From Verrucomicrobiota bacterium (lineage in GTDB: Bacteria > Verrucomicrobiota > Verrucomicrobiia > Limisphaerales > UBA11358), in contig JBEKHY010000012.1 of the NCBI GenBank assembly GCA_050012035.1, forward strand, positions 11,110 through 75,109: a stretch of DNA of 64,000 nt, given 5' to 3'. The notes beneath the pieces were generated by a model. The model was not told where the DNA came from. It did no database searches and worked only from the letters and a program-made list of their open reading frames with translations. Made by a program: the position numbers and the translations under genes. Positions 3,034-46,082 of this stretch are shown one piece after another; positions within the stretch are counted from its first letter, which is position 1, and each line of letters opens with the position of its first letter.

Positions 3034-3175
3034 GGATCACTGATTACTGTTCACTGATTACTGATCCCCGGCCTCTGCCGTTTCTGCGTCCCTCATTCGA
3101 TGTTGGATGTTCGGTGTTGGGTGTTCGATGTTTCCCGCCGCCCCTCGCCCCTCGCCCCTTGTCCCCCGTCACTCC
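3034..3175. repeat. three adjacent degenerate heptanucleotide arrays
   Basis: 3034-3068 reads GGATCAC TGATTAC TGTTCAC TGATTAC TGATCCC. 3094-3135 reads CATTCGA TGTTGGA TGTTCGG TGTTGGG TGTTCGA TGTTTCC. 3136-3175 reads CGCCGCC CCTCGCC CCTCGCC CCTTGTC CCCCGTC ACTCC. The last array ends 1 nt before ATG 3176. Confidence 0.85.
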
Positions 3176-5380
3176 ATGAGCTGGGTCACCATCATCTGGT
3201 CCATGATCGCGTCCGCGTGTCTGACGCTGGCGGCGGTGTATTTGCTGGTGTGGTGCAAACAGCGCACGGCGTGGGCCAGTCTGCTCTTTTCCCTGACGGC
3301 GATGGCGACGGCCGCCATGGCGTTTTGTGAGCTGGAGATGATGCGGGCGGAGACACCCGGACAATTCGGCACGGCGCTGCGTTGGATCCACGTGGCGGCC
3401 TTTGTGGTCATTGTCTCGCTGATCGGCTTCGTGCTGTTCTATATGCGGGCCGGGCGGCCGTGGCTTGCCTGGACCGTCTGCACTCTGCGGACTTTCTCGC
3501 TCCTGCTCAATTTTCTGACGGGGCAGAATCTCAACTATCGCGAGGTGACCGGGCTGCGGCATGTCCCGTTCCTCGGCGAATCGGTCTCGGTCGGCGAAGG
3601 GGTGTCGAATCCGTGGATGCTCGTCGGTCAGTTGAGCCTGTTGTTATTTGTGGTTTTCGTCGCCGACGCCACGATCACCGTCTGGCGGCGCGGTGACCGG
3701 CGACAAGTGCTGGTATTGGGTGGCAGCATTGTGTTCTTCGTGCTGGCCACCACCGTGCAGTCCGTGCTGGCGCTCTGGCAAATCGTTCACGCGCCGATCA
3801 CCCCGAGCTTGTTCTACATGAGCATCGTGGCGGCGATGGCCTTCGAAATGAGCCGTGTGGCGTTGCGCTCGGCGCAGTTGTCGGACGACCTCCGTGAGAG
3901 CGAAGAGCGGATGACCCTGGCTGCGGAGGCGGCGGGGATTGGCGTTTGGATGTGGAACATCGCGCGCAACCAGATCTGGGGCTCGGAGAGGTGGCTCCGC
4001 CTGTTCGGGTTCGAACCCGGTGCGGCCGTCAGCTTTGAAATGCTCGTCCAGCGAGTCCATCCGGACGACCGCGAGAGGGTGGAGCGCGAGGTGCGGCGCG
4101 CGTTGGAGGACCGGAGCGATTACATGGCGGATTACCGTGTGGTTTTGCCCGACGGCACCCAACGCTGGATCGCGGCCCGGGGACGGATGTACCCGGGCAC
4201 GCACGAGAAGCCGGCCCGGATGCTGAGCGCGACGATTGACATCACCGAGCGCAAGCGCACGGAAGAGGCCCTGCAAAATTCAGAAGAGAAATTCCGGCAA
4301 TTCTTTAAAAATACCCCTGACTACTGCTATATCATTTCAACGGAGGGGAATATTCTTCACGTAAATGAAGCGGCCCTTAAAACCCTTGGGTACAAGCGAG
4401 AGGAACTCGTCGGCCAGCCCCTGGCGAGGATCTATGCACCTGAGTCCGTGGCCAGGATGGAAGACCTCCTTAACCGGTGGAAAGAGAGCGGGCAGATCCG
4501 AGACGAAGAAATGGTGATCGTCACCAGGAAGGGCGAGCGACGCGTCGTTATTCTCAATGTTGGCGCGGTGAAGGATAAAGACGGAATGATCCTGCATTCG
4601 ACATCGGTGCAAACGGATATCACCGGGCGCAAACAGGCGGAGCTGGAGATCGTGCAACAGCGCAACGAACTGGCCCATGTCGGTCGCGTGTCCACGATCA
4701 GCCAACTGGCCTCCACGCTGGCTCATGAGTTGAACCAGCCGCTGGGCGCCATCCTGCGAAATGCGGAGGCCGCCGAACTTTTCCTGCAGAGTGACCCGCC
4801 GGACCTGGAGGAAGTGCGCGCCATCCTTGCCGACATCCGCAAGGATGACCAGCGCGCGGGTGAAGTCATTGATCGCATGCGGGCGCTCCTCAAACGGCGC
4901 GGACTGGAGCACACCACGCTGGACATCGTGGAGTTGGTGGAAGACGTCGTGCCCTTGGTCCATCCCGACGCGGTGAGCCGCAGGGTGAGGCTGGACATCG
5001 AAGTCCCTAGGAATCTGCCGCCGGTGCGCGGCGATCGCGTGCATTTGCAGCAGGTGCTGCTCAATCTCATCCTCAACGGCATGGACGCGATGGGCGAAGT
5101 TCCGGCCGAGGCTCGCCGCCTGACAGTGCGTGCCCGGCAGGCGGATGCCGGGACCATTGAGGTGGCGATCGCCGACGCGGGTCACGGCGTCCCCGCCGAG
5201 AAATTCGCGCGCCTCTTCGAGCCGTTCTTCACGACCAAACCCAATGGCATGGGCTTGGGGCTGCCCATCTCTTCCACCATCATCGAAGCGCACGGTGGCC
5301 GGATTTGGGCTGAAAACAGCTCCGCCGGGGCCACGTTCTACTTCACCGTGCCGGTGACAACGGAGAGAGTTGCATCATGA
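3176..5380 (+). CDS. sensor histidine kinase (multi-TM N-terminal sensor, 2 PAS, HisKA, HATPase_c)
   Basis: ORF 3107..5380. I chose ATG 3176 (MSWVTIIWSM...) because the upstream codons are repeat-derived. The H-box is LAHELNQPLGAI and the G-boxes are DAGHGVP / GMGLGLPIS. PAS S-box segments are present. The stop overlaps the response-regulator start. Confidence 0.85.
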   Translation: MSWVTIIWSMIASACLTLAAVYLLVWCKQRTAWASLLFSLTAMATAAMAFCELEMMRAETPGQFGTALRWIHVAAFVVIVSLIGFVLFYMRAGRPWLAWTVCTLRTFSLLLNFLTGQNLNYREVTGLRHVPFLGESVSVGEGVSNPWMLVGQLSLLLFVVFVADATITVWRRGDRRQVLVLGGSIVFFVLATTVQSVLALWQIVHAPITPSLFYMSIVAAMAFEMSRVALRSAQLSDDLRESEERMTLAAEAAGIGVWMWNIARNQIWGSERWLRLFGFEPGAAVSFEMLVQRVHPDDRERVEREVRRALEDRSDYMADYRVVLPDGTQRWIAARGRMYPGTHEKPARMLSATIDITERKRTEEALQNSEEKFRQFFKNTPDYCYIISTEGNILHVNEAALKTLGYKREELVGQPLARIYAPESVARMEDLLNRWKESGQIRDEEMVIVTRKGERRVVILNVGAVKDKDGMILHSTSVQTDITGRKQAELEIVQQRNELAHVGRVSTISQLASTLAHELNQPLGAILRNAEAAELFLQSDPPDLEEVRAILADIRKDDQRAGEVIDRMRALLKRRGLEHTTLDIVELVEDVVPLVHPDAVSRRVRLDIEVPRNLPPVRGDRVHLQQVLLNLILNGMDAMGEVPAEARRLTVRARQADAGTIEVAIADAGHGVPAEKFARLFEPFFTTKPNGMGLGLPISSTIIEAHGGRIWAENSSAGATFYFTVPVTTERVAS

Positions 5381-6018
5381 GTGCGCACACGCCGACGGTT
5401 TTCATTGTGGACGACGACGCTTCATTTCTGGCAGCCGTGTCGCGGTTGCTGCGGGCGACGGGGCATCCGGTGAAAACTTTTTCATCGGCCGCCGAGTTTC
5501 TGAAATACCTACCGGCCGCCGGCCCAGGTTGCGTGGTGGCGGATCTGCAGATGCCGGGCTTGAGCGGCTTGGATCTGCAGGCGGCGTTGGCCAGAACCAA
5601 CAACCCTTTGCCGGTGCTTTTTCTCACCGGTCATGGCGACATTCCCACCTCGGTTCGCGCGATGCGCCAGGGCGCGGAGGATTTCCTTACCAAGCGCGCG
5701 CCCAAGGAGAAGTTGCTCGACGCCGTGAACCGCGCGCTTGCCCGTGATGCGCGTGAACGAGCCGCGCGCACGCGGGTTCAGGCGTTGCGCGCCCGCTTTG
5801 ACACGCTCACGGAACGCGAGCGCGAGGTGTTGCAGCACGTCATTCGCGGCCAAATGAACAAGCAGATTGCGGCGGACCTTGGCATCCATGAACGCACCGT
5901 GAAACTCCACCGCACCGCCATCACGACCAAGCTGGGAGTGCCGTCCGTGGCGGAACTGACCCGGCTCGCCCAGGAAGCGGGGCTGAGTGGCGAGTGGCAG
6001 GTGGCAAGTGGCAAGTGA
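5377..6018 (+). CDS. response regulator, REC + LuxR/FixJ-type HTH
   Basis: Receiver domain (VFIVDDD...DLQMPGLSGLDL...LTGHGD) plus HTH (LTEREREVLQHVIRGQMNKQIAADLGIHERTVKLHR). The last 10 codons and the TGA stop lie inside a heptad array. Confidence 0.9.
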   Translation: MSAHTPTVFIVDDDASFLAAVSRLLRATGHPVKTFSSAAEFLKYLPAAGPGCVVADLQMPGLSGLDLQAALARTNNPLPVLFLTGHGDIPTSVRAMRQGAEDFLTKRAPKEKLLDAVNRALARDARERAARTRVQALRARFDTLTEREREVLQHVIRGQMNKQIAADLGIHERTVKLHRTAITTKLGVPSVAELTRLAQEAGLSGEWQVASGK

Positions 6019-6113
6019 CGGGGAGAAACGCCACCCGCCACCGCCTTCAAGCTGCTCCCACCCTTCGGTATTTCCCGCCTCGCCACTCGCCACCCGCCAC
6101 TCGTCACTTCCCC
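5985..6113. repeat. inverted pair of heptad arrays (RRGTGRC x5 ... CGCCACY x5)
   Basis: 5985-6019 reads GAGTGGC GAGTGGC AGGTGGC AAGTGGC AAGTGAC. 6074-6113 reads CCCGCCT CGCCACT CGCCACC CGCCACT CGTCACT TCCCC. The two arms are imperfectly complementary. Confidence 0.85.
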
Positions 6114-6177
6114 GACCTTCCCCAAAGGGCAGTAGCCGCCCGACCGCACCCCAGCCTACGCTGCTCATTCATTCCTT

Positions 6178-6567
6178 ATGAGCAGCACCCGCCAAACCTA
6201 CGTGGCTGTCGTTGATGATGACGAGAGCCTGTGCCGTTCCCTTGGCCGCCTGCTCCGGGCGGCGGGGATTCAGCCGGTCACCTATCCTTCCGCCGAGGCC
6301 TTCCTCGCCGACACCAAGCGGCCCCGGTTTGACTGCCTGGTGTTCGATATCCAATTGGACGGCATGTCCGGCATCGAACTGCACCGGCAACTCAACGCGT
6401 CCGGCTCGACGATCCCCGTCATTTACATTACCGCGTACGACGAACCCGCGACCCGCGAAGAAGCCCAAGCCGCAGGTTGCGCCGCTTACTTCCGCAAGAC
6501 CGCCCCCGGCGAAGACGTGCTCCAAGCCATCCGCCGCGCGGCGAACCTGAAGGAAGACCGGACATGA
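6178..6567 (+). CDS. single-domain response regulator (REC only)
   Basis: 129 aa. VAVVDDDESL...DIQLDGMSGIEL...ITAYDE is a receiver fold with no output domain. Confidence 0.85.
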   Translation: MSSTRQTYVAVVDDDESLCRSLGRLLRAAGIQPVTYPSAEAFLADTKRPRFDCLVFDIQLDGMSGIELHRQLNASGSTIPVIYITAYDEPATREEAQAAGCAAYFRKTAPGEDVLQAIRRAANLKEDRT

Positions 6568-6601
6568 AGGCCAATTCGCCCAGTAAACAGTAAACAACAC
6601 C

Positions 6602-7456
6602 ATGAAATCAAAACTCATCCTCCTCGCACTCGCCTCCGGGCTGGCGCTCGCCACCACTGCGCTGTTCGCACAGGACGCGGCGGCCGACGACAAAGCCGCC
6701 GCCGAACTGGCCAAGAAACTCGCGAACCCCGTCGCCAGCCTCATCAGCGTGCCCATCCAGAACAACTGGGACTTTGGCATCGGCCCGGCCAACGCCATGC
6801 GTTTCACGGCCAACATCCAGCCCGTGATTCCATTTTCGCTGAACACGAACTGGAATCTCATCACGCGCACCATTGTGCCGGTCATCTACGCCCAAGCACC
6901 GGTCAAGGGCGGCACCGACCAGTCCGGCCTCGGTGACATTGTGCAGAGCCTTTGGCTCTCGCCCAAAGCGCCGACGGGCAGCGGCTGGATTTGGGGCGCG
7001 GGCGCGGTGCTGCTTTATCCCAGCGGCACGGATGGCTTGAGCGGGCGCCACTGGGGCGCGGGACCGACGGCGCTCGCATTGAAGCAGCAGAACGGCTGGA
7101 CTTACGGTGCGCTGGTCAACCATCTTTGGTCCTACGCGCAGACCGGCGGCCACGGCTCGTCCGATGCCGGCGATGCCAGCGACGGCAGCGATGCCGGCAT
7201 CAACGCCACCTTCCTCCAGCCGTTCGTCTCCTACAGCACCAAGACTTTCACCACCTTCGGGTTGAACACCGAGTCCACCTACGACTGGTCGCACAGCCAG
7301 TGGACCGTGCCCTTGAACGCGAGCGTCAGCCAGCTCGTCAAGCTCGGCGGCAAGCCTGTGCAGTTCCAACTCGGCGTGAAGTATTACGCCGAGAAGCCCG
7401 ACGGTGGGCCGGACTGGGGCCTCCGCTTCACCGTCACGTTCCTGTTTCCGAAATGA
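6602..7456 (+). CDS. exported protein, putative outer-membrane beta-barrel/transporter-like (unknown function)
   Basis: Signal peptide MKSKLILLALASGLALATTALFA. The LANPVASLISVPIQNNWDFGIG...IQPVIPFSL pattern is one I recall from MetA-pathway/outer-membrane transporter-like proteins. Not verified. Confidence 0.5.
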   Translation: MKSKLILLALASGLALATTALFAQDAAADDKAAAELAKKLANPVASLISVPIQNNWDFGIGPANAMRFTANIQPVIPFSLNTNWNLITRTIVPVIYAQAPVKGGTDQSGLGDIVQSLWLSPKAPTGSGWIWGAGAVLLYPSGTDGLSGRHWGAGPTALALKQQNGWTYGALVNHLWSYAQTGGHGSSDAGDASDGSDAGINATFLQPFVSYSTKTFTTFGLNTESTYDWSHSQWTVPLNASVSQLVKLGGKPVQFQLGVKYYAEKPDGGPDWGLRFTVTFLFPK

Positions 7457-7462
7457 AAGAAC

Positions 7463-7517
7463 AGATAACTGATTACTGACCACCGACCACTCACCACCAC
7501 CACTGATTACTTAATCT
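7463..7517. repeat. heptad array (YGAYYAC-type) directly upstream of a start codon
   Basis: AGATAAC TGATTAC TGACCAC CGACCAC TCACCAC (CACCAC) TGATTAC TTAATCT. It ends at the ATG at 7518. Confidence 0.8.
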
Positions 7518-8126
7518 ATGAAAACGAAAATCTCAACTCTGGGCCTCGCGGCACTCCTGCCGGTGGCCATCCTGACCTTCAGTTCCTGCACTACCGAACA
7601 CCAAGTTACTAAAGGCCCTGACGTGATCGCGTTTCAGACCGGTGTCCCCGGCGGGGTCATGGTGAATACCTACAAGGAAACCGCCACGGTGACGGCCATT
7701 GACCCGGCCACCCACAAAGTGACGCTCGTCACCAAGGACGGCACCCAGACCACCGTCAAAGCCGGACCGGAGGTCGCCAATTTCGCGCAGATCGAAGTGG
7801 GCGATCAGGTCAAGGCCACCGTGACAGACAAGCTGTTGATCTTTGTGCCCAAGCCGGGGGAATCGGCGGTCGATCAGGCCGCCAGTGCAGTTGCCCTGGC
7901 TCCGCTGGGCGAAAAACCCGGCGGCACGATGGCCGAAACCACCCAGTTCACCACCAAGGTCACGGCCGTGGATTTGAAGCACCACACAGCCACGCTCCAA
8001 TTGCCGGATGGCACCAGCAAAACCTTCAATGTCCGCCCGGACGTGGAGTTGACGAAAGAAACCGTGGGCGTGGACGTGGTGATCCGCACCACCCAGGCCG
8101 TCGCCATTTCAGTGGAGAAACCGTGA
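7518..8126 (+). CDS. lipoprotein, unknown function
   Basis: Signal peptide with lipobox LTFSSC. 202 aa, with no recognisable domain. Confidence 0.6.
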   Translation: MKTKISTLGLAALLPVAILTFSSCTTEHQVTKGPDVIAFQTGVPGGVMVNTYKETATVTAIDPATHKVTLVTKDGTQTTVKAGPEVANFAQIEVGDQVKATVTDKLLIFVPKPGESAVDQAASAVALAPLGEKPGGTMAETTQFTTKVTAVDLKHHTATLQLPDGTSKTFNVRPDVELTKETVGVDVVIRTTQAVAISVEKP

Positions 8127-8141
8127 TGAAAAACCGGATTC

Positions 8142-8161
8142 AATCCCGATGCGTCGGGATT
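8142..8161 (+). terminator. stem-loop downstream of the lipoprotein gene
   Basis: AATCCCGA-TGCG-TCGGGATT is a perfect 8-bp stem 15 nt after the stop. No U-tract follows, so it is only a weak terminator candidate. Confidence 0.3.
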
Positions 8162-8246
8162 CAAGTTCCGAAAATCAATTTGCCCGGCGCTGAATGAGTC
8201 GAACCGCGCGACGGACAGAAAAAAGAAACAAGACAACAAAACATAT

Positions 8247-9872
<1,626 letters not shown>

Positions 9873-11706: not shown

Positions 11707-11727
11707 CATAACTGATAACTGATTATG
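11707..11727. repeat. heptad array containing a start codon
   Basis: CATAACT GATAACT GATTATG. The final ATG (11725-11727) is the start of the next CDS. Confidence 0.7.
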
Positions 11728-12168: not shown

Positions 12169-12955
12169 ATCCCTCTTCGATCTTCCGTTGCTGATCACCG
12201 GCCCGGCGATTGTCGGGCTGCTGTGGCTGTTCGCCGTGGCCGGGTTGCTGCTGGTCCGCCGCCGCGTGCTGCCGCGCCTGCGCATTCAGGCGGCAGATTC
12301 GGAATTCAGCGGCGCCATGCTGCAGTCGGTGATGGTGTTCTATGGCCTGGCCGTGGCGCTGATCGCTATAAGCGTCTGGCAGACCTACTCGGATACCTCG
12401 AAGACCATTTCCGGCGAGGCCAGCGCACTGAACGCGCTTTACCGCGACGTGAGCAGTTATCCCGAACCGATCCGCCTGGACTTGCAGCAGGAACTTCGTG
12501 ACTACACGGATCAGGTCATCCATCAAGCGTGGCCATTGCAGCGGCGCGGACAAATTCCGATGGCCGGCATCGCGCACATGACCCGCTTCCAGGCGGTGCT
12601 GGACAAATTCGAGCCGGCCACCGAGGGCCAGAAACTTCTGCACGGAGAAACCCTCCGCGCCTATAACCTGATGATCCAGGCCCGCCGTCTGCGGCTGGAT
12701 GCGGTGAACACCGGCCTGCCGGGGGTGATGTGGGGCGTGATTGTGGTGGGCGCGTTCATCGGTCTAAGTGCCTCCTTCTTTTTCAAAGTGGAAGATGCGC
12801 GACTGCACGGAATCCAGGTGCTCCTCCTGGCGACGTTCATCGGTCTGGTCATTTTCATGATTTTCGCGCTGGACCAACCTTTTCGCGGCGACCTGGGACT
12901 GGGGCCGGAGCCGTATCAATTAATTTACGATCAGTTGATGAAAGTGAAGCAGTGA
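12161..12955 (+). CDS. membrane protein, DUF4239-like
   Basis: ORF 11987..12955. I chose ATG 12161, which overlaps the upstream stop by 8 nt (ATGTTTGA). It has N- and C-terminal TM helices flanking a soluble region. The family assignment is from memory. Confidence 0.6.
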   Translation: MFESLFDLPLLITGPAIVGLLWLFAVAGLLLVRRRVLPRLRIQAADSEFSGAMLQSVMVFYGLAVALIAISVWQTYSDTSKTISGEASALNALYRDVSSYPEPIRLDLQQELRDYTDQVIHQAWPLQRRGQIPMAGIAHMTRFQAVLDKFEPATEGQKLLHGETLRAYNLMIQARRLRLDAVNTGLPGVMWGVIVVGAFIGLSASFFFKVEDARLHGIQVLLLATFIGLVIFMIFALDQPFRGDLGLGPEPYQLIYDQLMKVKQ

Positions 12956-12986
12956 CAAGTGGCGAGTGGCAAGTGACAAGTGAACA
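12943..12986. repeat. heptad array (AGTGRCR) containing a stop codon
   Basis: AGTGAAGC AGTGACA AGTGGCG AGTGGCA AGTGACA AGTGAAC. TGA 12953-12955 terminates the DUF4239-like CDS. Confidence 0.85.
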
Positions 12987-13002
12987 GAAAGAAAGAAGCG
13001 CA

Positions 13003-14346
13003 ATGATGAAAACGAAACGGAAACCCGCCTTCGCGGCGCTACGGCGCGGCAGGCAAAACTTCGCAACAGCAGTGCTGATCTGCGGGCTGGCGGCGGGTTG
13101 GCTGTGCGCGCGGGCCGCTCAAGCGCAGTCGGAGGAATCTGAGCCGGCGCCGGCCCGCGGCGAATTCGAAGCCGCGCCGCTGCCGCCGCCGGACCAGCCG
13201 TTTTTCATTCCCGATGTGCCGCAGTCCGTCGTTGACCAAACGCAAGTCAAGTCTCGCTGGATCACGGTCAAATTCGGATTGGTGATGCTTGTGGATTACA
13301 ACGCGTTCCAACAGGACGCGAACAGCCTCGCTCAGGTGGGCAGACAGCCGGATGGGTGGGATGACCGCTCCGAGCGAGTGATGGTGCGCGGCACCACCGG
13401 ACAGGACTACAAGATCAGCTATCTCATCGCCGGCGAATACAAGGGTTTTGAGACCGAACCGGAGGATTTGTGGAATTTGACCGACCTCGCTTTTACTTTC
13501 CCGCTCGGCGGCCCGGCGACGAAGCTCACGGTGGGCAAGACCAAGGAGACGTTCGCCTACGAAATGGTGGGCGACGCGGCCAATCTACCGCAACAAGAGC
13601 GCGTGCTGACTCCCTTCTTCGTCTCGCGCAACGTTGGCGTGAAAGTGATTCACGTCTTCGGTGACGACCAGCGCATGACCCTTTCCGGCGGCGTCTTCAA
13701 CGATTGGTTTGTGACCGGCGATTCGCTTTCCGACAGCGGCACGGATGTCTCGGCGCGCTTCACGGGACTAGTGTGGGATAAGCGTGACGGCAAGAGCTTT
13801 CTGCACCTCGGCGTTTCCGGGCGTTACGCCGGCGCGGACAACAACACGCTGCGCTACGCCGGTCGGCCCGAATCCAACGTCACCGACAATTATGTGGACA
13901 CAGGCAATCTGACGGCGGACCACGCGTGGCATCTCGGCCTCGAAGCGTTGTGGAATGAAGGCCCGTTCTCGGTGCTCGCCGAATACAACCGTGCCTGGGT
14001 GAGTTCTGCCGCGTCGGGCAACCCGCAGTTTTACGGCTATTACATCACGGGCAGTTGGATTCTCACCGGCGAAACGCGGCCTTACGACCGCACCGTCGGC
14101 TACGCGCGCCGCGTCATGCCGGCGGGTCGCTGGGGCGCACCCGAACTCGTCGCGCGATTTTCGAATGTAAACCTCGACGACGGCGCGGTGCAGGGCGGCA
14201 AGTTCAACAAGACCTATCTCGGCATCAACTGGTGGGCGACGCGGCGCTGGAAAGTCGGGTTCGGCTGGGGACACACCTGGCTGGATCGTTTCGGCACGAC
14301 CGGCGTGACGGACAGTTTTCAAACGCGCATCCAATGGATTTATTGA
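13003..14346 (+). CDS. anion-selective porin (phosphate-selective porin O/P-like)
   Basis: ORF 12730..14346. I chose ATG 13003 (MMKTKRKPAF...ARAAQA is a signal peptide). Alternating beta-strand pattern with a C-terminal aromatic residue (IQWIY). Confidence 0.6.
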   Translation: MMKTKRKPAFAALRRGRQNFATAVLICGLAAGWLCARAAQAQSEESEPAPARGEFEAAPLPPPDQPFFIPDVPQSVVDQTQVKSRWITVKFGLVMLVDYNAFQQDANSLAQVGRQPDGWDDRSERVMVRGTTGQDYKISYLIAGEYKGFETEPEDLWNLTDLAFTFPLGGPATKLTVGKTKETFAYEMVGDAANLPQQERVLTPFFVSRNVGVKVIHVFGDDQRMTLSGGVFNDWFVTGDSLSDSGTDVSARFTGLVWDKRDGKSFLHLGVSGRYAGADNNTLRYAGRPESNVTDNYVDTGNLTADHAWHLGLEALWNEGPFSVLAEYNRAWVSSAASGNPQFYGYYITGSWILTGETRPYDRTVGYARRVMPAGRWGAPELVARFSNVNLDDGAVQGGKFNKTYLGINWWATRRWKVGFGWGHTWLDRFGTTGVTDSFQTRIQWIY

Positions 14347-14392
14347 CACATCCGGGAATGAACATGAAACCGACGATAAAAATCGAGACACG

Positions 14393-15091
14393 ATGAAACG
14401 CATTATCCAGTTTTTGCGGACGACGCTCGTGGGCGGCCTTCTGTTTCTGGTGCCGATCGTCGTGTTGGTCATCGTCCTCGGCAAAGCGCTGGTCCTCGCG
14501 CGCAAAATCGTGGATCCGCTGGCGGAGCACCTTCCCGTCCATTCGATCATCGGTTTGCAGACGCCACTGTTTCTGGCCATCGGCGGGATCGTGTTGCTCT
14601 GTTTTCTCGCCGGGTTCTTTGCGCGGACGGTGCTCGCCCGGAAGATCGTCAACCGGTTGGAGGAGTCGGTGCTTTCGAACGTGCCCGGCTACGAGTTCCT
14701 CAAGCGCATGAGTGGGAGCACGCTGGGCGTCGAGCAGGATGGAGCTTATCCGGTCGTGCTCGCGCATTTCGACGACGCCTCGCAAATCGGATTCCGGATC
14801 GAAGTGCTGGAGAACGGCTTCGTCGTGGTGTTTGTCCCCGGTGTGCCCAATGCAAGCGCCGGTGACGTTTATTTAATGAACCCTGACCGGGTCACGCCGC
14901 TCGAAGTCCCGCCAGCCCGGGCGCTGAAATGTCTGAAACGTCTTGGTGCAGGCTCAAACGCGCTGTTGCGCGGTTTTTCCATCGCGGCGGCTCCCGTGAA
15001 CAGACCGGGAACCAATGATCCGATTCAACCCATGAACGACGGCAAACATCCGCTCATTCATTTCAAAGGCGCACGAATTGTTTCAGCCTGA
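14393..15091 (+). CDS. DUF502-family membrane protein
   Basis: MKRIIQFLRTTLVGGLLFLVPIVVLVIVLGKAL is the characteristic DUF502 N-terminus. Two TM helices. Confidence 0.65.
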   Translation: MKRIIQFLRTTLVGGLLFLVPIVVLVIVLGKALVLARKIVDPLAEHLPVHSIIGLQTPLFLAIGGIVLLCFLAGFFARTVLARKIVNRLEESVLSNVPGYEFLKRMSGSTLGVEQDGAYPVVLAHFDDASQIGFRIEVLENGFVVVFVPGVPNASAGDVYLMNPDRVTPLEVPPARALKCLKRLGAGSNALLRGFSIAAAPVNRPGTNDPIQPMNDGKHPLIHFKGARIVSA

Positions 15092-15104
15092 GAAAGCCAC
15101 TCGC

Positions 15105-16283
15105 ATGAAGAAAAAAACAATTTTCCAAAACACACTGCCCGCTTCGGTTGCGGGTATCATTGGGTTCGTGACGCTCTGGTCGTCTCCCGCCATGGGTGCC
15201 ACCAACGCCGTCGCGGTTGCCGGCCAGACGATCGCCGCCGAGGCGTCTGTTTCACCTTTCGCGCCCACGATCCCCAACCAGTCGCCCGCGCCTTCGAACG
15301 CGCCGGCAGGGATGGTGTGGATTCCCGGCGGTGAATTTTCGATGGGTTGCATGGCGCCGTCCGAAGGTTACTGCACCGTGGCCACGATGAATGCCGTGAA
15401 CGACGCGCAGCCCGTCCACCGGGTTTATGTGGACGGTTTCTGGATGGACACGAACGATGTGACCAACGAGAAGTTTGAAAAATTCGTCAAGGCCACCGGC
15501 TACAAGACGATCGCGGAGATCGCGCCGACGAGGGAGCAGTTTCCCACCGCGCCGCCGGAAAATCTCGTGGCCGGTTCCACGGTCTTCACGCCCACGACCA
15601 ACGCGGTACCGTTGGATGATTATTTTCAATGGTGGCGTTATGTGCATGGCGCCAACTGGCGTCATCCCACCGGGCCGGACAGCGACTTGAAGGGCCGGGA
15701 AAAATATCCGGTGGTGCAGATTGCCTACGAAGACGCCGCGGCTTACGCGAAGTGGGCGGGCAAACGGCTGCCTACCGAGGCGGAATGGGAATTCGCTGCG
15801 CGCGGAGGGTTGAGCGGCAAATCTTATGCCTGGGGCGATGAGTTCAAGCCCGGTGGCAAATGGATGGCGAACATTTATGAAGGCCAATTTCCGGTGAAGG
15901 ACACGGGTGAAGATGGTTTTGCGGGACTCGCGCCAGTCGGGCAATTCCCGCCAAATGGCTACGGACTTTTCGACATGGCGGGCAACGTCTGGCAATGGTG
16001 CAGCGACTGGTATCGGCCCGACTATTATGCGCGGCTCAAGCTCGCGGGCATCGTCCTGGTGCGTAATCCACAAGGCCCGGCCTCCAGCTACACTCCCGGC
16101 GATGACCAGCCCCAGCGGGTGCAACGCGGCGGCTCATTCCTCTGCACGGACCAGTATTGCACCCGTTACATGATGGGGACGCGTGGCAAAGGGGATGTTG
16201 ACACCGGCAGCAATCACCTCGGCTTTCGCTGCGTCGAAACGGTTGAGGCGGAGGCAACGGGAAAGGAGAGCCCGGCACGATGA
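15105..16283 (+). CDS. formylglycine-generating enzyme (FGE/SUMF1 family)
   Basis: Signal peptide, then GMVWIPGGEFSMG, NVWQWCSDWY and RGGSFLC motifs typical of FGE-sulfatase domain proteins. Confidence 0.9.
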   Translation: MKKKTIFQNTLPASVAGIIGFVTLWSSPAMGATNAVAVAGQTIAAEASVSPFAPTIPNQSPAPSNAPAGMVWIPGGEFSMGCMAPSEGYCTVATMNAVNDAQPVHRVYVDGFWMDTNDVTNEKFEKFVKATGYKTIAEIAPTREQFPTAPPENLVAGSTVFTPTTNAVPLDDYFQWWRYVHGANWRHPTGPDSDLKGREKYPVVQIAYEDAAAYAKWAGKRLPTEAEWEFAARGGLSGKSYAWGDEFKPGGKWMANIYEGQFPVKDTGEDGFAGLAPVGQFPPNGYGLFDMAGNVWQWCSDWYRPDYYARLKLAGIVLVRNPQGPASSYTPGDDQPQRVQRGGSFLCTDQYCTRYMMGTRGKGDVDTGSNHLGFRCVETVEAEATGKESPAR

Positions 16284-25637: not shown

Positions 25638-25642
25638 ATGGG

Positions 25643-25670
25643 CAGTAATCAGTGATCAGTAATCCGTGAC
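25643..25670. repeat. heptad array (CAGTRAT)
   Basis: CAGTAAT CAGTGAT CAGTAAT CCGTGAC. It lies between stop 25637 and ATG 25678. Confidence 0.8.
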
Positions 25671-25677
25671 AACTCGG

Positions 25678-33260: not shown

Positions 33261-33333
33261 TGGGCCCGACAGGATTTGAACCTGTGACCAAGCGATTATG
33301 AGTCGCCTGCTCTAACCACTGAGCTACGGGCCC
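33261..33333 (-). tRNA. tRNA-Met (anticodon CAT; elongator-type, or possibly Ile2 if lysidinylated)
   Basis: The reverse complement folds as a clean cloverleaf: GGGCCCG TA GCTC AGTGGTTA GAGC A GGCGA CTCATAA TCGCT TGGTC ACAGG TTCAAAT CCTGT CGGGCCC A. CCA is not encoded. Confidence 0.9.
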
Positions 33334-33374: not shown

Positions 33375-35135
<1,761 letters not shown>

Positions 35136-40727: not shown

Positions 40728-40731
40728 TCCC

Positions 40732-42387
40732 ATGACTGTGCCACCCGAAAAGGACATTTTCCGCCAAACGGCATGGTGCGCGGCGATTTTGATGACCGCC
40801 GCCGCCGTCTGGCTGCATTTCTATTTTCTATTTCACGCCGGCGGCTTGTGGCGCGACGAAGTGCATGTTGTCAATCTCGCCGCCGGCCACTCCCTGAGCG
40901 ACCTGACCAAGGATTCATTTCCCGCGCTGATGCCGCTGCTGCTCCGCGGCTGGTCCGCCCTCGGCCTCGGGCAAGGCGATTTGAGTTTGCGGCTCCTGGG
41001 AATGCTGGTAGGGATCGGAATCCTGGCGGCACTCTGGGCCACGGCGTGGACGGCGCGACGGCCACCGCTCCTCAGCCTGGCGCTGGTGGGTCTGAACAGT
41101 CTGGTGATTTTTTACGGCGACTCGTTGCGCGGTTACGGCCTGGGCAGCCTGTTCATCCTGCTGACGATGGGGGCCGCGTGGGCATTTCTGAAGAAACCGA
41201 CCTGGGCGCGCGCCGGGATTCTGGCGGCAACGGCCATCTTGAGCGTGCAGGCGCTTTACCAAAACGCCGTGCTGCTGGCCGCCGTCTGCTTCGGCGCGTG
41301 GGTGATTTGCTGGCGGCAGGGAAATTTTCGCGCCGCCATGAAAATCTTACTGGCGGGGCTGGCCGCCGCCGCGTCGTTGTTACCCTATTGGAGCAACCTT
41401 GCCACGCTGCCGCAGACCAGCACGTCATTGCGCATGGGTTTTTATCCGGGCATTGCCTTTGGCAACTTCGATTCCATCGTTGCCTTTCCGCTGACGCAGT
41501 ACCTTTACGTCTGGGAATTTCTCGCGTTGGCGGTTGTCGGGTTTGGCGTCACGTCATTATGGCGCATGGCTTCGTCGAAATCCACCGCGCCGGCCGGTGG
41601 AGCTTCACCGGACGATTTGCGGTTGTTTGCCGCCGCCACCTTGCTGGCGGCGCTGGCCGGTCTCATCGGCTTTTTGTGGTATGCAGCGCTGCCGACCCAG
41701 CCGTGGTATTTCCTGCCGCTCGTGGTTTTGCTGGCCGGATGTTTCGATTTCGGCGTGCCGGTGATGTCGCCGCCGCGAACCTTCCGCGCCGCGGCGTTCG
41801 GGTTCATTGCGGCAACGGCGCTCATTGCGGTGCCGTTCGCGCAACGGGATTTGGACTGGCACTTCACCAACGTTGACCGGCTGGCGCGGCAATTGGCGGC
41901 GGAAGCCGCGCCGCAGGATTTCATCGTCGTCACCCCCTGGTTTTGCGGCATTACCTTTGAGCGTTACTTCAAGGCGCCGACGCCGTGGCAGACTTTGCCG
42001 CCGCTGGCCGACCATTCGCGGCACCGTTACGACCTGGTCCAGGAGCAAATGAAAACGCCCAATGCCCTGCAGCCCGTCTACGATGGAATCGCGGCCACGC
42101 TCCAGTCCGGCCACCGCGTGTGGGTGGTCGGGAACATGCAGATCCCCGAACCCGGCACGCCGTTACCGGGCGATCTGCCGCCGCCGCCGCTGAAACATTC
42201 CGGCTGGTCGGACCTGCCTTATTCCGGAAGGTGGGCGGCGCAGGCCGCCGGCTTCCTCGAAAATCACAGCCTCCAATTTGAGCGCGTGGATCATGAAACC
42301 AACGCCAACGTGAATTACTACGAAAGCCTGCAGTTATTCGAAGCCAGCGGTTGGAGAAATTCCGCCCCGGAAACAAACAAGCCCTGA
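40732..42387 (+). CDS. second GT-C-type membrane glycosyltransferase-like protein
   Basis: ORF 40507..42387. I chose ATG 40732, 5 nt after the upstream stop. The GGLWRDEVHVVNLA loop motif is followed by about 10 TM helices. Confidence 0.5.
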   Translation: MTVPPEKDIFRQTAWCAAILMTAAAVWLHFYFLFHAGGLWRDEVHVVNLAAGHSLSDLTKDSFPALMPLLLRGWSALGLGQGDLSLRLLGMLVGIGILAALWATAWTARRPPLLSLALVGLNSLVIFYGDSLRGYGLGSLFILLTMGAAWAFLKKPTWARAGILAATAILSVQALYQNAVLLAAVCFGAWVICWRQGNFRAAMKILLAGLAAAASLLPYWSNLATLPQTSTSLRMGFYPGIAFGNFDSIVAFPLTQYLYVWEFLALAVVGFGVTSLWRMASSKSTAPAGGASPDDLRLFAAATLLAALAGLIGFLWYAALPTQPWYFLPLVVLLAGCFDFGVPVMSPPRTFRAAAFGFIAATALIAVPFAQRDLDWHFTNVDRLARQLAAEAAPQDFIVVTPWFCGITFERYFKAPTPWQTLPPLADHSRHRYDLVQEQMKTPNALQPVYDGIAATLQSGHRVWVVGNMQIPEPGTPLPGDLPPPPLKHSGWSDLPYSGRWAAQAAGFLENHSLQFERVDHETNANVNYYESLQLFEASGWRNSAPETNKP

Positions 42388-42500
42388 TTTTTCGTACGGC
42401 CCCGGCTTGACGCCGCCGTCTGTCGCTGCGACCTTCTTTTCGCTTGGCGCAAAACGCGGCAGCGTCAGCGGCAGGCCCGTCCTCCGTAGCACTGCGGAGG

Positions 42501-45500
42501 GTGGACAACCTGTTCGCTGACATTGCGAAAGCTCCCGCCGTGCAATCCCTTGCCCGGCGACTGGAGGATGGCGGAGTGTTTACTTGCGCCGGCGTTTGCC
42601 AGGCAGCGCAGCCGTTTTTTGCCGTTCTCCTTCAAAATATTTTCTCGGACCAGCCACTCATCCTCATCACGCCGGATTTGAAAACGCAGGAAAATTTCCA
42701 CCAGGACATCGAAACGTGGCTCGATATGAGTCGAGTATCGGAAAAAACAGCAAGCGCGAACGCCGATTTCAGCTCTCGTCTCTCGACTCTCGACCTTCGA
42801 CCGTTGTTTTATCCCGCCTGGGAAATTTTGCCGCACGAAGGCAAGCTCCCGCACGCCGACACCATCAGCGACCGGTTGCAGACGCTGGTTTCACTCTCCA
42901 ACAATTCCGCACTCCGCACTCCGCACCCCATATTGGTCGTGACCAGCATCACCGCCCTTTTGCAGAAAACCTTCCTGCCCGGCGAAATCCAAAACCGCAC
43001 CCGCTCACTTCGCCGCGCCGATAAAGTAAATCCACTCGACCTGATTGAGTGGTTGGAGGAGCAGGGCTACGACCCTGAGGCGCAGGTCACGCAGAAGGGC
43101 GAAATCGCCTTGCGCGGTGGCATCCTGGACATTTGGCCGCTTATCAGTTCGTGGCCCGTGCGGCTCGAATTCTTCGGCGACGAACTGGAATCACTCCGCC
43201 ATTTCGATCCCCTCACGCAAATTTCGCGCGAGGAAATTTCGAGCGTCACAATTCCGCCCGCCGGCGAACTGGGAATGCTTATGAAGCGGCAGGTGACAGG
43301 TGACAAGTGGCATGACGAAGATTCTCCAGCCAGTAAGCCGAATCCTGTCACTCGTCACGTGTCACTGGCCACCCTCCTGGATTATCTGCCGCGCAAAGCC
43401 ATTTTCATTTTGTGCGAGCCTGAACAACTTTCCGTTCATGCCGACGAATACGCCCAACAAATTCCGGCAGACGACCCGTTTTTCATTTCGTGGCCGGATT
43501 TTCTCCTCGAATCAAACCGGCGCGGCTTCACCTCAATCGAGTTGACCGAAGAAATCGAAATCCGCGAAGCCAATCGCCAATCGGCAATCGGCAATCCGCA
43601 TTTCGCATCGCTCGACGCCTATCGTCCGCTGGCCGAACGCGCGCCGGAACTGCAAATTGCCGAGGCGCAGCGCCGCGAGTTCTTCCATCAACTCCATCGC
43701 TGGCTGCGACAGGGTTATGCGGTTCACGTCTTCTGCAACAACGACGGCGAACGGCAGCGGTTTGAAGAAATCTGGATGGAACTCGTGGGACAGGCTTCCA
43801 GCCTGTCTCCATCTGAAAAAGGCCCCCGGAAAGAAATTGGAGACAGGCGGGACGCCTGTCCTGCACTGCACCTCGGCATGCTTTCCCGCGGCTTCGTCTG
43901 CGAAGATGCCAAACTGGTCGTCGTCACCGACGCCGAGATTTTCGGGCGCTACAAAATCCAGCGGCCGCGCCGGCTCAAATCCCCACACGCGGCGGCGATG
44001 CGCTCGGCGCTGGAGATTGATTTCACAGATTTGGAGGAAGGTGACCTGGTCGTGCATCTGCAATACGGCATCGGCCGTTATCTCGGCCTGAAAAATCTGC
44101 CCGCCAGTTCGCGAACCGAAGCCCCAGATGCCAGACGCCAGACGCCAGATGCCGGCACGGAGTGCCTTGTCATCGAATACGCGCCCGCGAATCCCGGCGA
44201 TGAGCCGCCCAAACTTTACGTGCCGGTCAGCGAGGCGCACTTGGTCAGCAAATACGTTGGCGCGGGCAAGGCGCATCCGCCGTTGAACACGCTGGGCGGC
44301 ACGCGCTGGAAAAAGGCGAAGGCGCAGGCGGAACGCGCCGTGCGCGATGTCGCCGCCGAACTGCTGGCCATCCAGGCTGCGCGGGAAACACAGCCCGGCC
44401 ACGCCTTTGCGCCGGACGCGCCCTGGCAGCGCGAATTTGAGAGTGCGTTCATCTACGAGGAAACGCCCGACCAGTTCCGCTCCATCGTCGAAACCAAGGC
44501 CGATATGGAGCGCGCGAAACCGATGGACCGGCTGATTTGCGGCGACGCCGGCTTTGGCAAAACCGAGGTCGCCATCCGTGCCGCGTTCAAAGCGGTGATA
44601 GGCGGCAAACAAGTCGCCGTGCTCGTGCCGACAACGGTACTGGCCCAGCAACATTTCAACACGTTCCGCGAGCGCATGGCGGATTACCCCATGCGCATCG
44701 AATTGCTCTCACGCTTCCGCTCGCGCCGCCAGCAACAGCGTGTCGTGAAAGATTTGGCCAACGGCTCGGTGGACATTGTTATTGGCACGCACCGGCTGAT
44801 TCAAAACGACATCACCTTCAAGGAACTCGGTCTGGTCGTGATTGACGAGGAACAGCGGTTCGGCGTGTTACACAAGGAAAAATTCAAGCGCCTGCGCACA
44901 CTGGTGGACGTGCTCACGCTCAGCGCCACGCCGATTCCGCGCACGCTCTACCTTGCGCTCACCGGCGCGCGCGACATGAGCACCATCCAGACGCCGCCGC
45001 AGGATCGCTTGCCGGTCGAAACCATCGTCACCCAATTCGACGAGCGCGTCATTCGCGACGCCATTCAGCGTGAACTGAATCGCGGCGGACAGGTTTTCTT
45101 TTTGCACAACCGCGTGATGACCATTCAAACGATGGCCGACCGGTTGAAACGGTTGCAGCCGCACGCGCGCATCGTCGTCGGCCACGGCCAGATGGAATCG
45201 GACGAACTCGAAGAGGTCATGACGAAATTCGTCAATGGCGAGGCGGATGTTCTACTTTCCACGACCATTATCGAGAGCGGCCTCGACATTCCGAACGCGA
45301 ACACCATCATCATTGACCGCGCCGACCGTTTCGGTCTGAGCGATTTGTATCAACTGCGCGGGCGCGTCGGGCGTTACAAGCATCAGGCTTACGCTTACCT
45401 GATGTTGCCGCGCCATGTGAGCCTGCTCACCGATGTGCGCAAACGCATCAGCGCCATTCGGCAATACTCGACGCTCGGCAGCGGCTTCAAAATCGCCATG

Positions 45501-46082
45501 CGCGATCTGGAAATCCGCGGTGCCGGCAATCTGCTCGGCGCGGAACAAAGCGGCCACATCACCGCTATCGGCTTCGAGCTTTACTGCCAGTTACTCAAAC
45601 AAAGTATTGGCGCGCTGAAGGGTGAAAAAGTGAAACCGAGAGTGGACGTGGCAATGAAATTGGATTTCCTGAACCAGTCAGTCGTCAGTAGTCAGTCGTC
45701 CGTAGCTACTGACTACAAACCATTGACCGCTGACAAATCTGCTTCCCTTCCTCACCACTACATCACCGAACCGCAACACCGTATCGAAATCTACCGCAAA
45801 CTCGCACAGGCGACGGACAAGCTGGCGCTGGAAAATTTGCAAACGGAATTGCGCGACCGCTTCGGTCCGTTGCCGCCGCCAGTAGAGTTGCTCTTGCTCG
45901 TGGCCGAACTGAAAATTCTCGCCAGCGAAAAAGCCGTGACTGCCATTGAAGTGAAGGATGACAAGCTGATGCTCACGCGCTACGGCGATTTCCTCACGCT
46001 CGGTGGCAAATTCCCGCGACTCACGAAAAAGGACGCCAAGGCGCGGTTGAAGGAAATCAAGAAACTGCTGCTGGCGATCTAG
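42501..46082 (+). CDS. mfd: transcription-repair coupling factor Mfd
   Basis: ORF 42444..46082. GTG 42501 is the likely start, since the upstream codons are a REP hairpin. Motifs [36 protein letters not shown] and QLRGRVGR are present. The ORF carries several in-frame repeat cassettes. Confidence 0.9.
42775..42802. repeat. heptad array within mfd
   Basis: CTCGTCT CTCGACT CTCGACC TTCGACC. Confidence 0.8.
42906..42926. repeat. three perfect TCCGCAC heptads within mfd
   Basis: TCCGCAC TCCGCAC TCCGCAC. Confidence 0.85.
43291..43372. repeat. inverted heptad arms within mfd
   Basis: AGGTGAC AGGTGAC AAGTGGC (43291-43311), then 33 nt, then CTGTCAC TCGTCAC GTGTCAC TGGCCAC (43345-43372). Confidence 0.85.
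43551..43613. repeat. nine-unit heptad array within mfd
   Basis: GAAATCG AAATCCG CGAAGCC AATCGCC AATCGGC AATCGGC AATCCGC ATTTCGC ATCGCTC. Confidence 0.8.
43787..43861. repeat. two GC-rich REP-like hairpins within mfd
   Basis: GGGACAGGCT-TCC-AGCCTGTCTCC (43787-43810) and GGAGACAGGCG-GGA-CGCCTGTCC (43839-43861). Confidence 0.8.
44124..44151. repeat. heptad array within mfd
   Basis: CCAGATG CCAGACG CCAGACG CCAGATG. Confidence 0.85.
45680..45714. repeat. heptad array with internal inverted repeat, within mfd
   Basis: AGTCGTC AGTAGTC AGTCGTC CGTAGCT ACTGACT. GTAGTCAGT and ACTGACTAC are complementary. Confidence 0.8.

Follow-up and report, generated by a model that had tools for sequence, protein, structure and literature searches.

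Short tandem arrays of seven-nucleotide units (heptads) occur in a 64-kb stretch of DNA (contig JBEKHY010000012.1, positions 11,110 to 75,109; hereafter the window) from an uncultured member of the Verrucomicrobiae, in the Planctomycetes–Verrucomicrobia–Chlamydiae (PVC) group, known from a soil or sediment genome. The arrays are found in two settings. One is the spacers of a co-directional gene run at 2.4-25.8 kb, which encodes a sulfate ABC transporter, a two-component system, a sulfatase, a formylglycine-generating enzyme (FGE)-sulfatase and a radical-SAM/SPASM maturase. The other is the gene mfd (42501-46082), whose product is the transcription-repair coupling factor Mfd (PDB match, E = 3.5e-211). 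All features are given on the forward strand of the window unless stated otherwise.

The nearest genomes in a species-representative collection are two uncultured Verrucomicrobiae metagenome-assembled genomes, L001 and L004 (84% and 76% protein identity over the histidine kinase), which are syntenic with the window over 2.9-17 kb. They agree with an earlier note on this DNA, made from its letters alone, that had placed it in a PVC-type host. A strain of ~94% nucleotide identity (L036 and L037) matches the window at 32.5-56 kb, and the Mfd orthologues bear the names Verrucomicrobiota, -ia or -iae. Comparisons were extended to a wider set, 595 kb in 80 orthologous metagenome loci, and to nine additional mfd loci, the relatives examined for unit classes amounting to ~0.8 Mb in all. 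One codon-usage gene caller was used for every locus. Repeats were called with Tandem Repeats Finder (TRF) at a minimum score of 30, and the null was provided by 30 dinucleotide-preserving shuffles.

A period of seven nucleotides

The earlier note had claimed a family of heptad micro-arrays and had named an excess at lag 7 over dinucleotide shuffles as a check, and both are borne out. In the window TRF returned 23 period-7 rows against 1.8 ± 1.3 (maximum 5) in shuffles, a twelve-fold excess, together with eight period-14 rows against 0.33, and the 595 kb of relatives contain 42 period-7 rows against 12.4 expected, a 3.4-fold excess. Multiples of three aside, periods 7 and 14 alone rise above the shuffles, in the window and likewise in the relatives; the raised periods 6, 9 and 12 are the ordinary codon effect. 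Strict ungapped runs occur at lags 7 and 14 only, and a count of trimers phased three times gives 124 at lag 7, compared with 29 at lag 5, nine at lag 8 and 15 at lag 10. Plain autocorrelation at lag 7 gives z = 2.8 in intergenic DNA and z = 3.6 in mfd, where lag 14 is raised too, and z = 0.6 in the other coding sequences (CDS). All 18 coordinate ranges originally put forward as arrays hold up, their lag-7 identity being 0.58-1.00 where the background is 0.256. Differences between units, described as mostly transitions, are so to a mild degree (74 transitions and 62 transversions; 54% against a random expectation of 33%).

There is next to no chance that this pattern is fortuitous, a codon-periodicity effect or an assembly artefact. 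Some individual TRF rows are weak, with 2.1-2.3 copies at a score of 30-32 (e.g. 6444-6458 and 40818-40833), and the short arrays at 11708-11723 and 6581-6596 have 2.3 copies each; single rows of this kind would suit a chance origin, but the size of the excess over shuffles does not. Codon periodicity is not the cause, as had been argued from the outset, since seven is not divisible by three and the lag-7 signal is missing from the other CDS, and an artefact is contradicted by the recurrence of the same arrays in independent assemblies of different samples. Shuffles, relatives, independent assemblies and autocorrelation together refute all three possibilities.

Arrays in intergenic spacers

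In the window arrays reach 1.49 per kb in intergenic DNA and 1.68 per kb in mfd, its only array-rich coding region, against 0.077 per kb in the other CDS, which are at chance level (shuffles give a density of ~0.03 arrays per kb). The corresponding values are 0.51, 1.58 and 0.013 per kb in the close relatives, and 0.15 (intergenic) and 0.046 (other CDS) in the wider set. The arrays are confined to places of low constraint, namely spacers, the final codons of a single gene and, in mfd, the linkers between domains.

All 13 intergenic arrays of the window lie at 1-26 kb, in 1.9 kb of intergenic DNA, and none is present in the 6.8 kb of intergenic DNA at 26-64 kb (P = 2.5e-9). The arrays, described as scattered across the window, are therefore not evenly spread. 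Within the co-directional run at 2.4-25.8 kb arrays occupy ten of 14 spacers, against none of the 13 other co-directional spacers of the window. Spacers in the array region are short (34-170 nt); six of the 13 arrays end at most 25 nt from a start codon, and several such starts lack a Shine-Dalgarno sequence. The earlier note was correct that start and stop codons are involved: the ATG codons at 3176, 7518 and 11725 come straight after arrays, and two TGA stops, 6016-6018 and 12953-12955, fall inside them.

Three arrays precede the histidine kinase gene. The outermost, (CACTGAT/TACTGTT) x5 at 3031-3068, was called by TRF ~110 nt 5' of the kinase start (lag-7 identity 0.71), and its position is kept in L001 and L004 while its sequence has diverged. 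The next, (TTSGRTG) x5.3 at 3094-3135 (TRF), has a 14-nt super-period and is specific to the window lineage, being absent from the orthologous spot of both L001 and L004; its unit class reappears at a non-orthologous site of the related locus L119 (20453-20482), where it forms one arm of a hairpin. The innermost, at 3136-3175, consists of three perfect copies of CGCCCCT plus degenerate units and ends at the kinase ATG 3176, and its orthologues in L001 and L004 are made of CACCACT/CGCCACT units.

Further along the run, (CAGTAAA) x2.3 at 6581-6596 (TRF) lies 5 nt ahead of ATG 6602, the array GATAACT GATTACT GACCACC GACCACT ... GATTACT at 7463-7517 ends at ATG 7518, and (TAACTGA) x2.3 at 11707-11724 abuts ATG 11725 of a zinc-ribbon gene. 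A weak array, (AGAAACA) x3.1 at 8217-8239, upstream of ATG 8247, is borderline (TRF score 30, one indel). The stop codon at 12953-12955 is held by (AGTGACA/AGTGGCG) x4.7 at 12943-12986. The cleanest intergenic array is (CTCCCCA) x2 + (CCACCCG) x4.6 at 24537-24579 (TRF 96% matches; lag-7 identity 0.91), and the last of the run, (CAGTAAT/CAGTGAT) x4 at 25643-25670, just past a stop at 25637, has the unit type of the array at 3031, reverse-complemented.

No rule of orientation was found. The idea that AGTG-strand arrays follow stops and CACT-strand arrays precede starts was rejected over 33 arrays in co-directional spacers (Mann-Whitney p = 0.75); the bias of array orientation relative to transcription, 17:8, is weak and not significant, and positional polarity is absent from such spacers. 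A scan for consensus promoters and terminators gave nothing above shuffle level, with no canonical terminators in the region, and Rfam 15 at the gathering score gave no match overlapping any array in the window and eight related loci. Neither a transposase, nor a reverse transcriptase, nor a known RNA family is found at the arrays.

Hairpin cassettes outside mfd

Most arrays are single and unstructured, whereas in about a third two opposed arrays pair up to give a long, imperfect hairpin. Hairpin formation was accordingly rejected as a general array property, only ~1/3 having a partner arm. One cassette outside mfd, at 5973-6121, contains a 43-nt inverted repeat with 77% complementarity (RNA fold -78.4 kcal/mol, z = -6.4). 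Its left arm, (GAGTGGC/AAGTGGC)n at 5985-6019, provides the last codons of the response-regulator gene and its TGA stop, and its right arm is the opposed array (CTCGCCA)n at 6074-6113. A hairpin is present at the 3' end of this regulator gene in L001 (z = -2.4) and L004 (z = -4.7) as well, with different arm sequences, the arms of the window being built of the GC-rich unit GTGGCRA and those of L004 of the AT-rich unit CAGTAAT. A second cassette, at 23097-23174, pairs (GTGACGG)n at 23103-23132 with (CACTGGT)n at 23134-23165 (-48.8 kcal/mol, z = -6.0), and further hairpins are found at L001 11818-11945 (z = -4.2) and L119 20395-20490 (z = -4.8). By contrast with these folded pairs, the sequences at 12940-13010 (z = +1.3), 24514-24645 (z = -1.0), 25630-25700, 42765-42805 and 44105-44165 (z = +1.9) are not more stable than shuffles, and the arrays at 12943-12986 and 24537-24579 are thus counted as unstructured.

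Palindromes of another kind, with the form GTAG...CTAC and resembling repetitive extragenic palindromic (REP) sequences, are located at 61123-61178 in the window (z = -5.4) and at 13984-14060 in L004 (z = -10.4), where the palindrome sits in the spacer that in the window holds the heptad array 7463-7517. They may belong to another family of hairpin elements within the clade, beside the heptad cassettes.

In-frame arrays within mfd

The window Mfd contains seven heptad sites (aa 91-98, 136-142, 264-270, 282-291, 351-367, 542-551 and 1059-1069), all in non-conserved linkers, in which the arrays are read in frame as a 7-residue-periodic low-complexity peptide. Nearest the N-terminus are (CTCTCGA) x3.1 at 42773-42794 (aa 91-98; TRF) and the perfect array (TCCGCAC) x3 at 42906-42926 (aa 136-142, SALRTPH; TRF), at the site of which orthologues hold other heptad peptides. 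They are followed by a hairpin at 43288-43370 (aa 261-291; fold -39.3 kcal/mol, z = -2.9) formed by (CAGGTGA)n at 43290-43309 and (CTGTCAC)n at 43345-43372. This hairpin is a 93-nt insert of constant length in nine of 11 orthologues; its arms are conserved and its loop is hypervariable. A covariation test over nine sequences detected no compensatory change, the share of paired cells being 87.4% and that in shuffles 86.6%, and selection on the structure is neither demonstrated nor excluded by it.

The array at 43551-43600 (aa 351-367; TRF) has four GCCAATC/GGCAATC copies plus degenerate units, its unit class being found also at aa 144-154 of the Mfd of L121, and (CCAGACG) x4.3 at 44124-44153 (aa 542-551) lies in a 13-residue insertion relative to the Mfd of Mycobacterium smegmatis, its unit being present at another site in L126 and L119. 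The D6-D7 linker carries a hairpin cassette that we call type A, with (AGTCAGY)n followed by CTACTGAC... at 45675-45734 (aa 1059-1078; fold -25.1 kcal/mol, z = -4.7). Type A is orthologous in L118, L122, L124 and L125, and an alternative cassette, type B, takes its place in L120, L121 and L123. In L125 a cassette at Mfd aa ~450 aligns with that at aa ~1080 through both arms and the loop, and entire cassettes are thus copied. The in-frame mfd hairpin at L118 8720-8794 reaches -62 kcal/mol (z = -9.4).

Other palindromes likewise accumulate in Mfd linkers. A non-heptad in-frame insert at 43788-43861 (aa 430-455 linker; fold -49.8 kcal/mol, z = -6.2) has 24-nt arms of 92% complementarity and is the strongest inverted repeat of the window, each arm being itself a small palindrome (GACAGGC...GCCTGTC). 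The sequence GGCGGGACGCC, taken from this palindrome, is not repeated in dispersed form across the window, where it has 10 matches, only one of them exact, and 4.9 are expected. Non-heptad in-frame inserts are also seen at differing sites (aa ~265, ~355, ~545 and ~1070) in the Mfd orthologues P0002-P0031; they include 'TLSPPGGERAGARGA', 'GAHGVTRPTEETG', 'EGRVTRVP...GTRVTRPSE' and 'GVQALAC..LKLELQRAGL', and look like translations of other small dispersed repeats.

The concentration of heptads in mfd extends to its close relatives. The 120 closest Mfd orthologues (74-98% identical) range in length from 1139 to 1262 residues and hold at the same linkers other 7-residue-periodic peptides, such as SEIRNPKSEI. 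Together they contain 28 lag-7 periodic segments, against 0-4 at every other lag, and at a lower threshold 85 of the 120 hold at least one lag-7 segment. At the DNA level, the mfd genes of ten distinct orthologues, 36.1 kb in all, contain 51 period-7 arrays and hardly any repeats of other periods; this is a density of 1.41 per kb, compared with 0.15 per kb for the DNA outside mfd, and every orthologue has 2-10 arrays. No lag-7 excess is present in 150 distant Mfd representatives (42-78% identity), and the hotspot therefore characterizes this clade rather than Mfd at large. Searching a protein database with the array-encoded peptides returned only spurious short open reading frames (ORFs) over long satellites, some of them eukaryotic.

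In-frame heptad arrays are not unique to mfd in principle. In L115, from a more distant organism, the ORF at 38-3226 encodes a regulator with Trans_reg_C and AAA_16 domains and two in-frame heptad hairpin cassettes (306-447 and 612-746). In the first, three heptads have been amplified as one 21-nt block (4.6 copies, 96% identity), the only heptad step by which the frame is preserved. The L115 unit is TGGTCCC/GGGACCA, and four further arrays of (CGAAATC)n and (TTCGAAT)n are found at 3174-3817.

Directly past the mfd stop of the window lie two inverted copies of the Acido-Lenti-1 RNA of Rfam, at 46081-46125 (reverse strand, 54.6 bits) and 46229-46274 (forward strand, 40.9 bits), the gathering score being 37; the motif was not found in eight related loci.

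A shared family of units and its turnover

To compare units, one consensus unit was taken per array. With the best-fitting of 14 combinations of rotation and strand chosen, the 23 units of the window give CACT-(C/G)-(G/A)-(C/T) at 5.05 bits, as compared with 4.00 ± 0.25 bits (maximum 4.50) for random window heptamers treated in the same way, and when the units of L001 and L004 are added the value is 5.16 bits against a null of 3.89 ± 0.18. The consensus NRYYACY, proposed in the earlier note, is this same sequence in another rotation and so gains statistical support. The units share a conserved core with variable flanks. The array at 7463-7517 mixes GATAACT, GATTACT, GACCACC and GACCACT, and orthologous arrays shift between genomes from CAGTAAT to CAGTGGC to AAGTGGC. 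Since AT-rich and GC-rich units are thus mixed within one array and interconverted between orthologues, they are variants of one family.

Over all loci the 44 intergenic arrays fall into 33 unit classes, nine of which recur at non-orthologous places or in different genomes, and ACTGATN variants, among them ACTGATA (= TAACTGA), make up nine of the 44. The units are drawn from a limited repertoire common to the clade, TAACTGA included. Between different linker sites of mfd, ten pairs share a unit by exact identity, against 2.4 expected under a conservative null (P about 0.001); with one mismatch allowed the comparison is uninformative (49 pairs against 36).

Comparison of orthologous loci, another of the checks proposed at the outset, reveals variation in presence, unit and copy number: arrays are gained, lost, expanded and mutated between related genomes, and some cassettes are copied from site to site. 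The arrays 5' of the kinase gene and at the 3' end of the regulator gene have conserved positions and have diverged by point substitutions. In the window the kinase and regulator genes overlap, and in L001 an additional cassette of 150 nt separates them. At the zinc-ribbon ATG the number of TAACTGA units differs between orthologous arrays, at 2.3 for the window and about 8-9 for L053, and the junction sequence is identical in the two, ending at the same ATG (the L053 junction was found by a regular-expression search; tblastn anchors on the 80 metagenome loci found nothing). Array density is graded by lineage, at 0.36 per kb in the window, 0.32 in L001, 0.09 in L004 and 0.07 in the wider set, so the trait is lineage-specific and strongest in the window's own clade.

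Likeness to known heptad repeats

The best known heptad repeats are the short tandemly repeated repetitive (STRR) sequences of cyanobacteria, 7-bp repeats that form hairpins in spacers such as that between hupS and hupL, and for which roles in transcript stability or translational coupling have been suggested. The two resemble each other in having tandem heptads, many dispersed and mostly intergenic arrays, inverted-array hairpins between co-directional genes and no established function. They differ in that the host here belongs to the Verrucomicrobiota and is not a heterocystous cyanobacterium, in that the arrays are shorter and more degenerate, and in that a protein-coding hotspot like mfd was not found in descriptions of STRR sequences. 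The label STRR-like that the arrays had been given is thus apt as to class, and does not extend to sequence. None of the classical units CCCCAGT (STRR1), TTGGTCA (STRR2) and CAACAGT (STRR3), which the present units were thought to resemble, is among the array consensuses of the window and ~0.8 Mb of relatives, nor were GGGAATC, GGGGAYT, GGACCGG, AAGACTC or GTGATTA found there as unit classes; only TAACTGA is common to other phyla.

STRR sequences, too, enter tolerant regions of working genes: cyanobacterial RNase P RNA genes carry STRR inserts, and Vioque is said to have reported, in 1997, such an insert in helix P12 of the RNA. In L118 the RNase P RNA gene (14367-14814; 215 bits) measures 448 nt against a model of 367 positions, and an array of ACGCAAC x3.4 lies ~80 nt upstream, at 14261-14284.

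Over-representation of heptanucleotide simple-sequence repeats (SSRs) with varied units is general, and found in several phyla, according to the accounts of Mrazek 2007 given in PMC4679880 and PMC4692102. The heptamers of Xanthomonas and Nostoc (GGGAATC and GGGGAYT; Rehm et al. 2015) are intergenic, lie between the same genes in related species, vary in length and sequence and sometimes form inverted pairs, and polymerase slippage has been proposed as their cause. This long-SSR class (Mrazek, Guo & Shah 2007; Rehm et al. 2015) shares with the present arrays a period-7 excess, an intergenic bias, conserved location, variable length and sequence and some inverted pairs. Non-triplet units are also largely kept out of coding DNA in both, with the in-frame arrays of mfd as the exception. 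The difference lies in the unit, which there is one G-rich, quadruplex-prone sequence per genome and here a degenerate NRYYACT repertoire without a G-tract.

TAACTGA repeats are known from marine Beggiatoaceae, some cyanobacteria and Bacteroidetes, where they abut start codons, overlap upstream stops and rarely occur at the protein periphery (MacGregor 2015, PMC4679880). The exact unit is present in the window in forward orientation, 1 nt before ATG 11725, and also in L001 and L053, and stop-codon overlap and rare in-frame copies at the protein periphery are likewise shared. Related heptamers are rarely repeated in Beggiatoaceae, whereas TAACTGA is here a minor member of a set of 33 classes in 44 arrays. 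Geobacter metallireducens has heptad elements of GGGACCG x4, in 49 copies within and between genes, and of MTYCTGA x5. The L115 unit GGGACCA is one base from GGGACCG and both are found within genes, but the Geobacter elements have a fixed unit and copy number (4 or 5) and are read as regulator sites or RNA elements, whereas both properties vary here. With Rickettsia palindromic elements and with REP sequences and bacterial interspersed mosaic elements (BIMEs), the cassettes have in common hairpin repeats in frame in tolerant parts of proteins and in operon spacers, with several sites per element. Unlike those, they are built of tandem heptads, have no fixed length or termini and are concentrated in one gene, and their mobility by a transposase is not shown.

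A literature search, itself incomplete and so weak evidence of absence, found no account of such repeats in Verrucomicrobia and none of an mfd hotspot. The arrays are apparently new for this phylum, and the kind of repeat is one already known from cyanobacteria and a few other bacteria.

Other features of the window

The array-rich stretch coincides with a sulfatase-themed cluster, in which a CysW/CysA-like sulfate transporter (449-2442), a sulfatase (8247-9872), an FGE-type sulfatase-modifying enzyme (15078-16283) and a radical-SAM/SPASM protein (16280-17572), probably an anaerobic sulfatase maturase, form one co-directional run. Within the histidine kinase gene, ~360 nt at 4255-4615 have no blastn counterpart in L001 and L004, which join 4254 to 4616, and may represent an extra PAS module. 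A 9-nt coding repeat (CGATGCCAG x3.8) is found at 7162-7195, within the unannotated protein encoded at 6602-7456, and again at L004 13661-13694. The ORF at 30273-32780 encodes a multi-bladed Kelch-repeat protein (13 Kelch_1 stretches in Pfam) and contains 13.8 tandem copies, at 81% identity, of a 144-nt (48-aa) unit (30231-32240). A tRNA gene (33261-33333, reverse strand; Rfam 76 bits) adjoins rpoD (33375-35135, reverse strand).

Origin of the arrays

The explanation we favour, with a probability of about 0.55, is that the arrays are lineage-specific heptanucleotide simple-sequence DNA, of one class with the cyanobacterial STRR sequences and the long SSRs of Burkholderia, Xanthomonas and Nostoc, turned over by slippage and template switching and kept where constraint is low. 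An origin at the DNA level, largely without function, is argued for by the weak orientation bias, the presence or absence of arrays in close relatives, the occurrence of both orientations inside mfd and the lineage-graded density. The arrays would be made and turned over while DNA is being synthesized, through strand slippage and short-range template switches that favour a 7-nt register; a template switch onto the complementary strand would yield inverted arms, and ectopic copying between arrays would keep the repertoire of units small. In coding DNA only three-unit (21 nt) steps would survive, and selection would purge arrays outside tolerant DNA, leaving essentially selfish or neutral by-products whose effects on transcripts would be secondary. 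The mfd hotspot would then reflect an insertion-tolerant, non-essential protein with eight domains and many linkers, and a tolerance filter of this kind is plausible. The shared consensus, small repertoire, cassette copying and regional clustering go beyond simple slippage, and we infer that they stem from templated copying between arrays.

Several observations weigh against this explanation. Pure slippage of arbitrary 7-mers predicts neither a shared consensus nor identical units at non-orthologous places and, in the case of TAACTGA, in other phyla, and the preference for a 7-nt register is without a demonstrated molecular cause. The mfd arrays of L036 and L037 differ from those of the window by substitutions only, with no change in copy number at 94% nucleotide identity, and so the arrays are not hypermutable and slippage is not fast. 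Linker lengths in the 120 Mfd orthologues display a local bump at 7 aa and no global enrichment of multiples of seven, a comparison that is confounded by phylogeny. Array density in Mfd linkers is ~10x that in the intergenic DNA of the same loci, for which a simple tolerance filter is insufficient, and many Mfd arrays are perfect, hence young, even where intergenic arrays are nearly absent (five against none in L120). Finally, the intergenic arrays are tightly clustered in one 23-kb gene run, and the favoured account leaves both this regional clustering and the mfd hotspot unexplained.

The arrays could alternatively be functional cis-elements of transcripts, the unstructured sense-strand arrays close before starts serving for ribosome landing or translational coupling and the opposed ones as 3'-protecting, pause or terminator hairpins. 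One version might involve a single-strand-binding protein taking ~7 nt per unit (a cold-shock protein, S1, or a HutP-type ring reading 7-nt-spaced triplets). Such roles would suit the six arrays close to starts and the starts without a Shine-Dalgarno sequence, the stops in all three frames that AT-rich units such as TAACTGA carry, the conserved unit core with its variable flanks and the want of canonical terminators; the kinase-upstream and regulator 3' arrays keep their positions in three genomes, and the 3' hairpin is maintained despite its differing arms. The same roles have been proposed for TAACTGA (MacGregor 2015, PMC4679880), as stability and coupling have for STRR sequences. Closeness to starts is expected anyway, however, in spacers of only 34-170 nt, 13 other co-directional spacers of the window do without arrays, and arrays come and go among close relatives. 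Orientation bias is not significant and positional polarity is lacking, both orientations occur within mfd, where such roles make no sense, the one hairpin that could be tested has no compensatory changes, and templated copying can keep arms complementary without selection. We regard a functional origin as rather unlikely. A little more doubtful is the proposal that the cassettes, with single arrays perhaps as half-cassettes, are non-autonomous mobile elements like REP/BIME sequences, miniature inverted-repeat transposable elements or Rickettsia palindromic elements, moved by a transposase such as the Y1 enzymes of the REP-associated tyrosine transposase type. It would account for the gain and loss of 90-150-nt cassettes as units, the homology of the two L125 cassettes (aa ~450 and aa ~1080) through arms and loop, the alternative cassette types in the same Mfd linker of different orthologues, the identical unit classes at non-orthologous sites and in different genomes, and the sharing of linkers and spacers by other palindromes (61123-61178 and 43788-43861 in the window, 13984-14060 in L004). 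Ogata and colleagues are said to have found, in 2000, in-frame palindromic insertions in Rickettsia genes. The cassettes nevertheless lack a fixed length, conserved termini and target-site duplications, many arrays have no partner arm, and unit number and sequence of the arms vary between copies, pointing to growth in situ; the window contains no transposase, and the DDE transposases at either margin of the loci L119 and L120 have no relation to the arrays.

Phase variation is very improbable. Heptanucleotide phase-variable genes are known, as in neuO of Escherichia coli K1 or the hmw promoters of Haemophilus influenzae, a 7-nt change shifts the frame unless it comes in multiples of three units, and arrays both inside mfd and beside start codons could act as contingency loci, which in mfd would toggle a modifier of mutation rate. 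Yet the arrays are short (3-5 units) and mostly imperfect, they are distributed along the whole length of mfd instead of forming a single 5' tract, and every mfd gene examined is intact; the identical copy numbers in L036 and L037 led us to reject this possibility. The mfd hotspot itself could be tied to the action of Mfd, and not to tolerance alone, either through in-frame hairpins that pause or block RNA polymerase and let Mfd end transcription of its own gene (autoregulation), or through newly made Mfd acting by preference in cis on polymerases that transcribe mfd, so that Mfd-linked R-loops and repair synthesis would turn the gene into a hotspot of slippage and template switching; to this we give little credence.

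Significance

Simple-sequence DNA of the kind favoured here bears on two long-standing questions, the preference of bacterial SSRs for a 7-nt unit, open since 2007, and the function of cyanobacterial STRR sequences, open since 1990. The recurrence in a third, unrelated phylum of the same period and hairpin architecture, together with a shared unit in TAACTGA, argues for a general property of DNA synthesis or repair, or for a widespread factor, and not for something particular to cyanobacterial biology. In practical terms, the arrays create 7-residue-periodic inserts in proteins and spurious ORFs in spacers, and can mislead annotation. The mfd hotspot allows gains, losses, unit changes and cassette copying to be placed on a gene tree and dated against substitutions, and if a link to Mfd action were true, this clade of Verrucomicrobiae would be a natural read-out of Mfd-associated mutagenesis.

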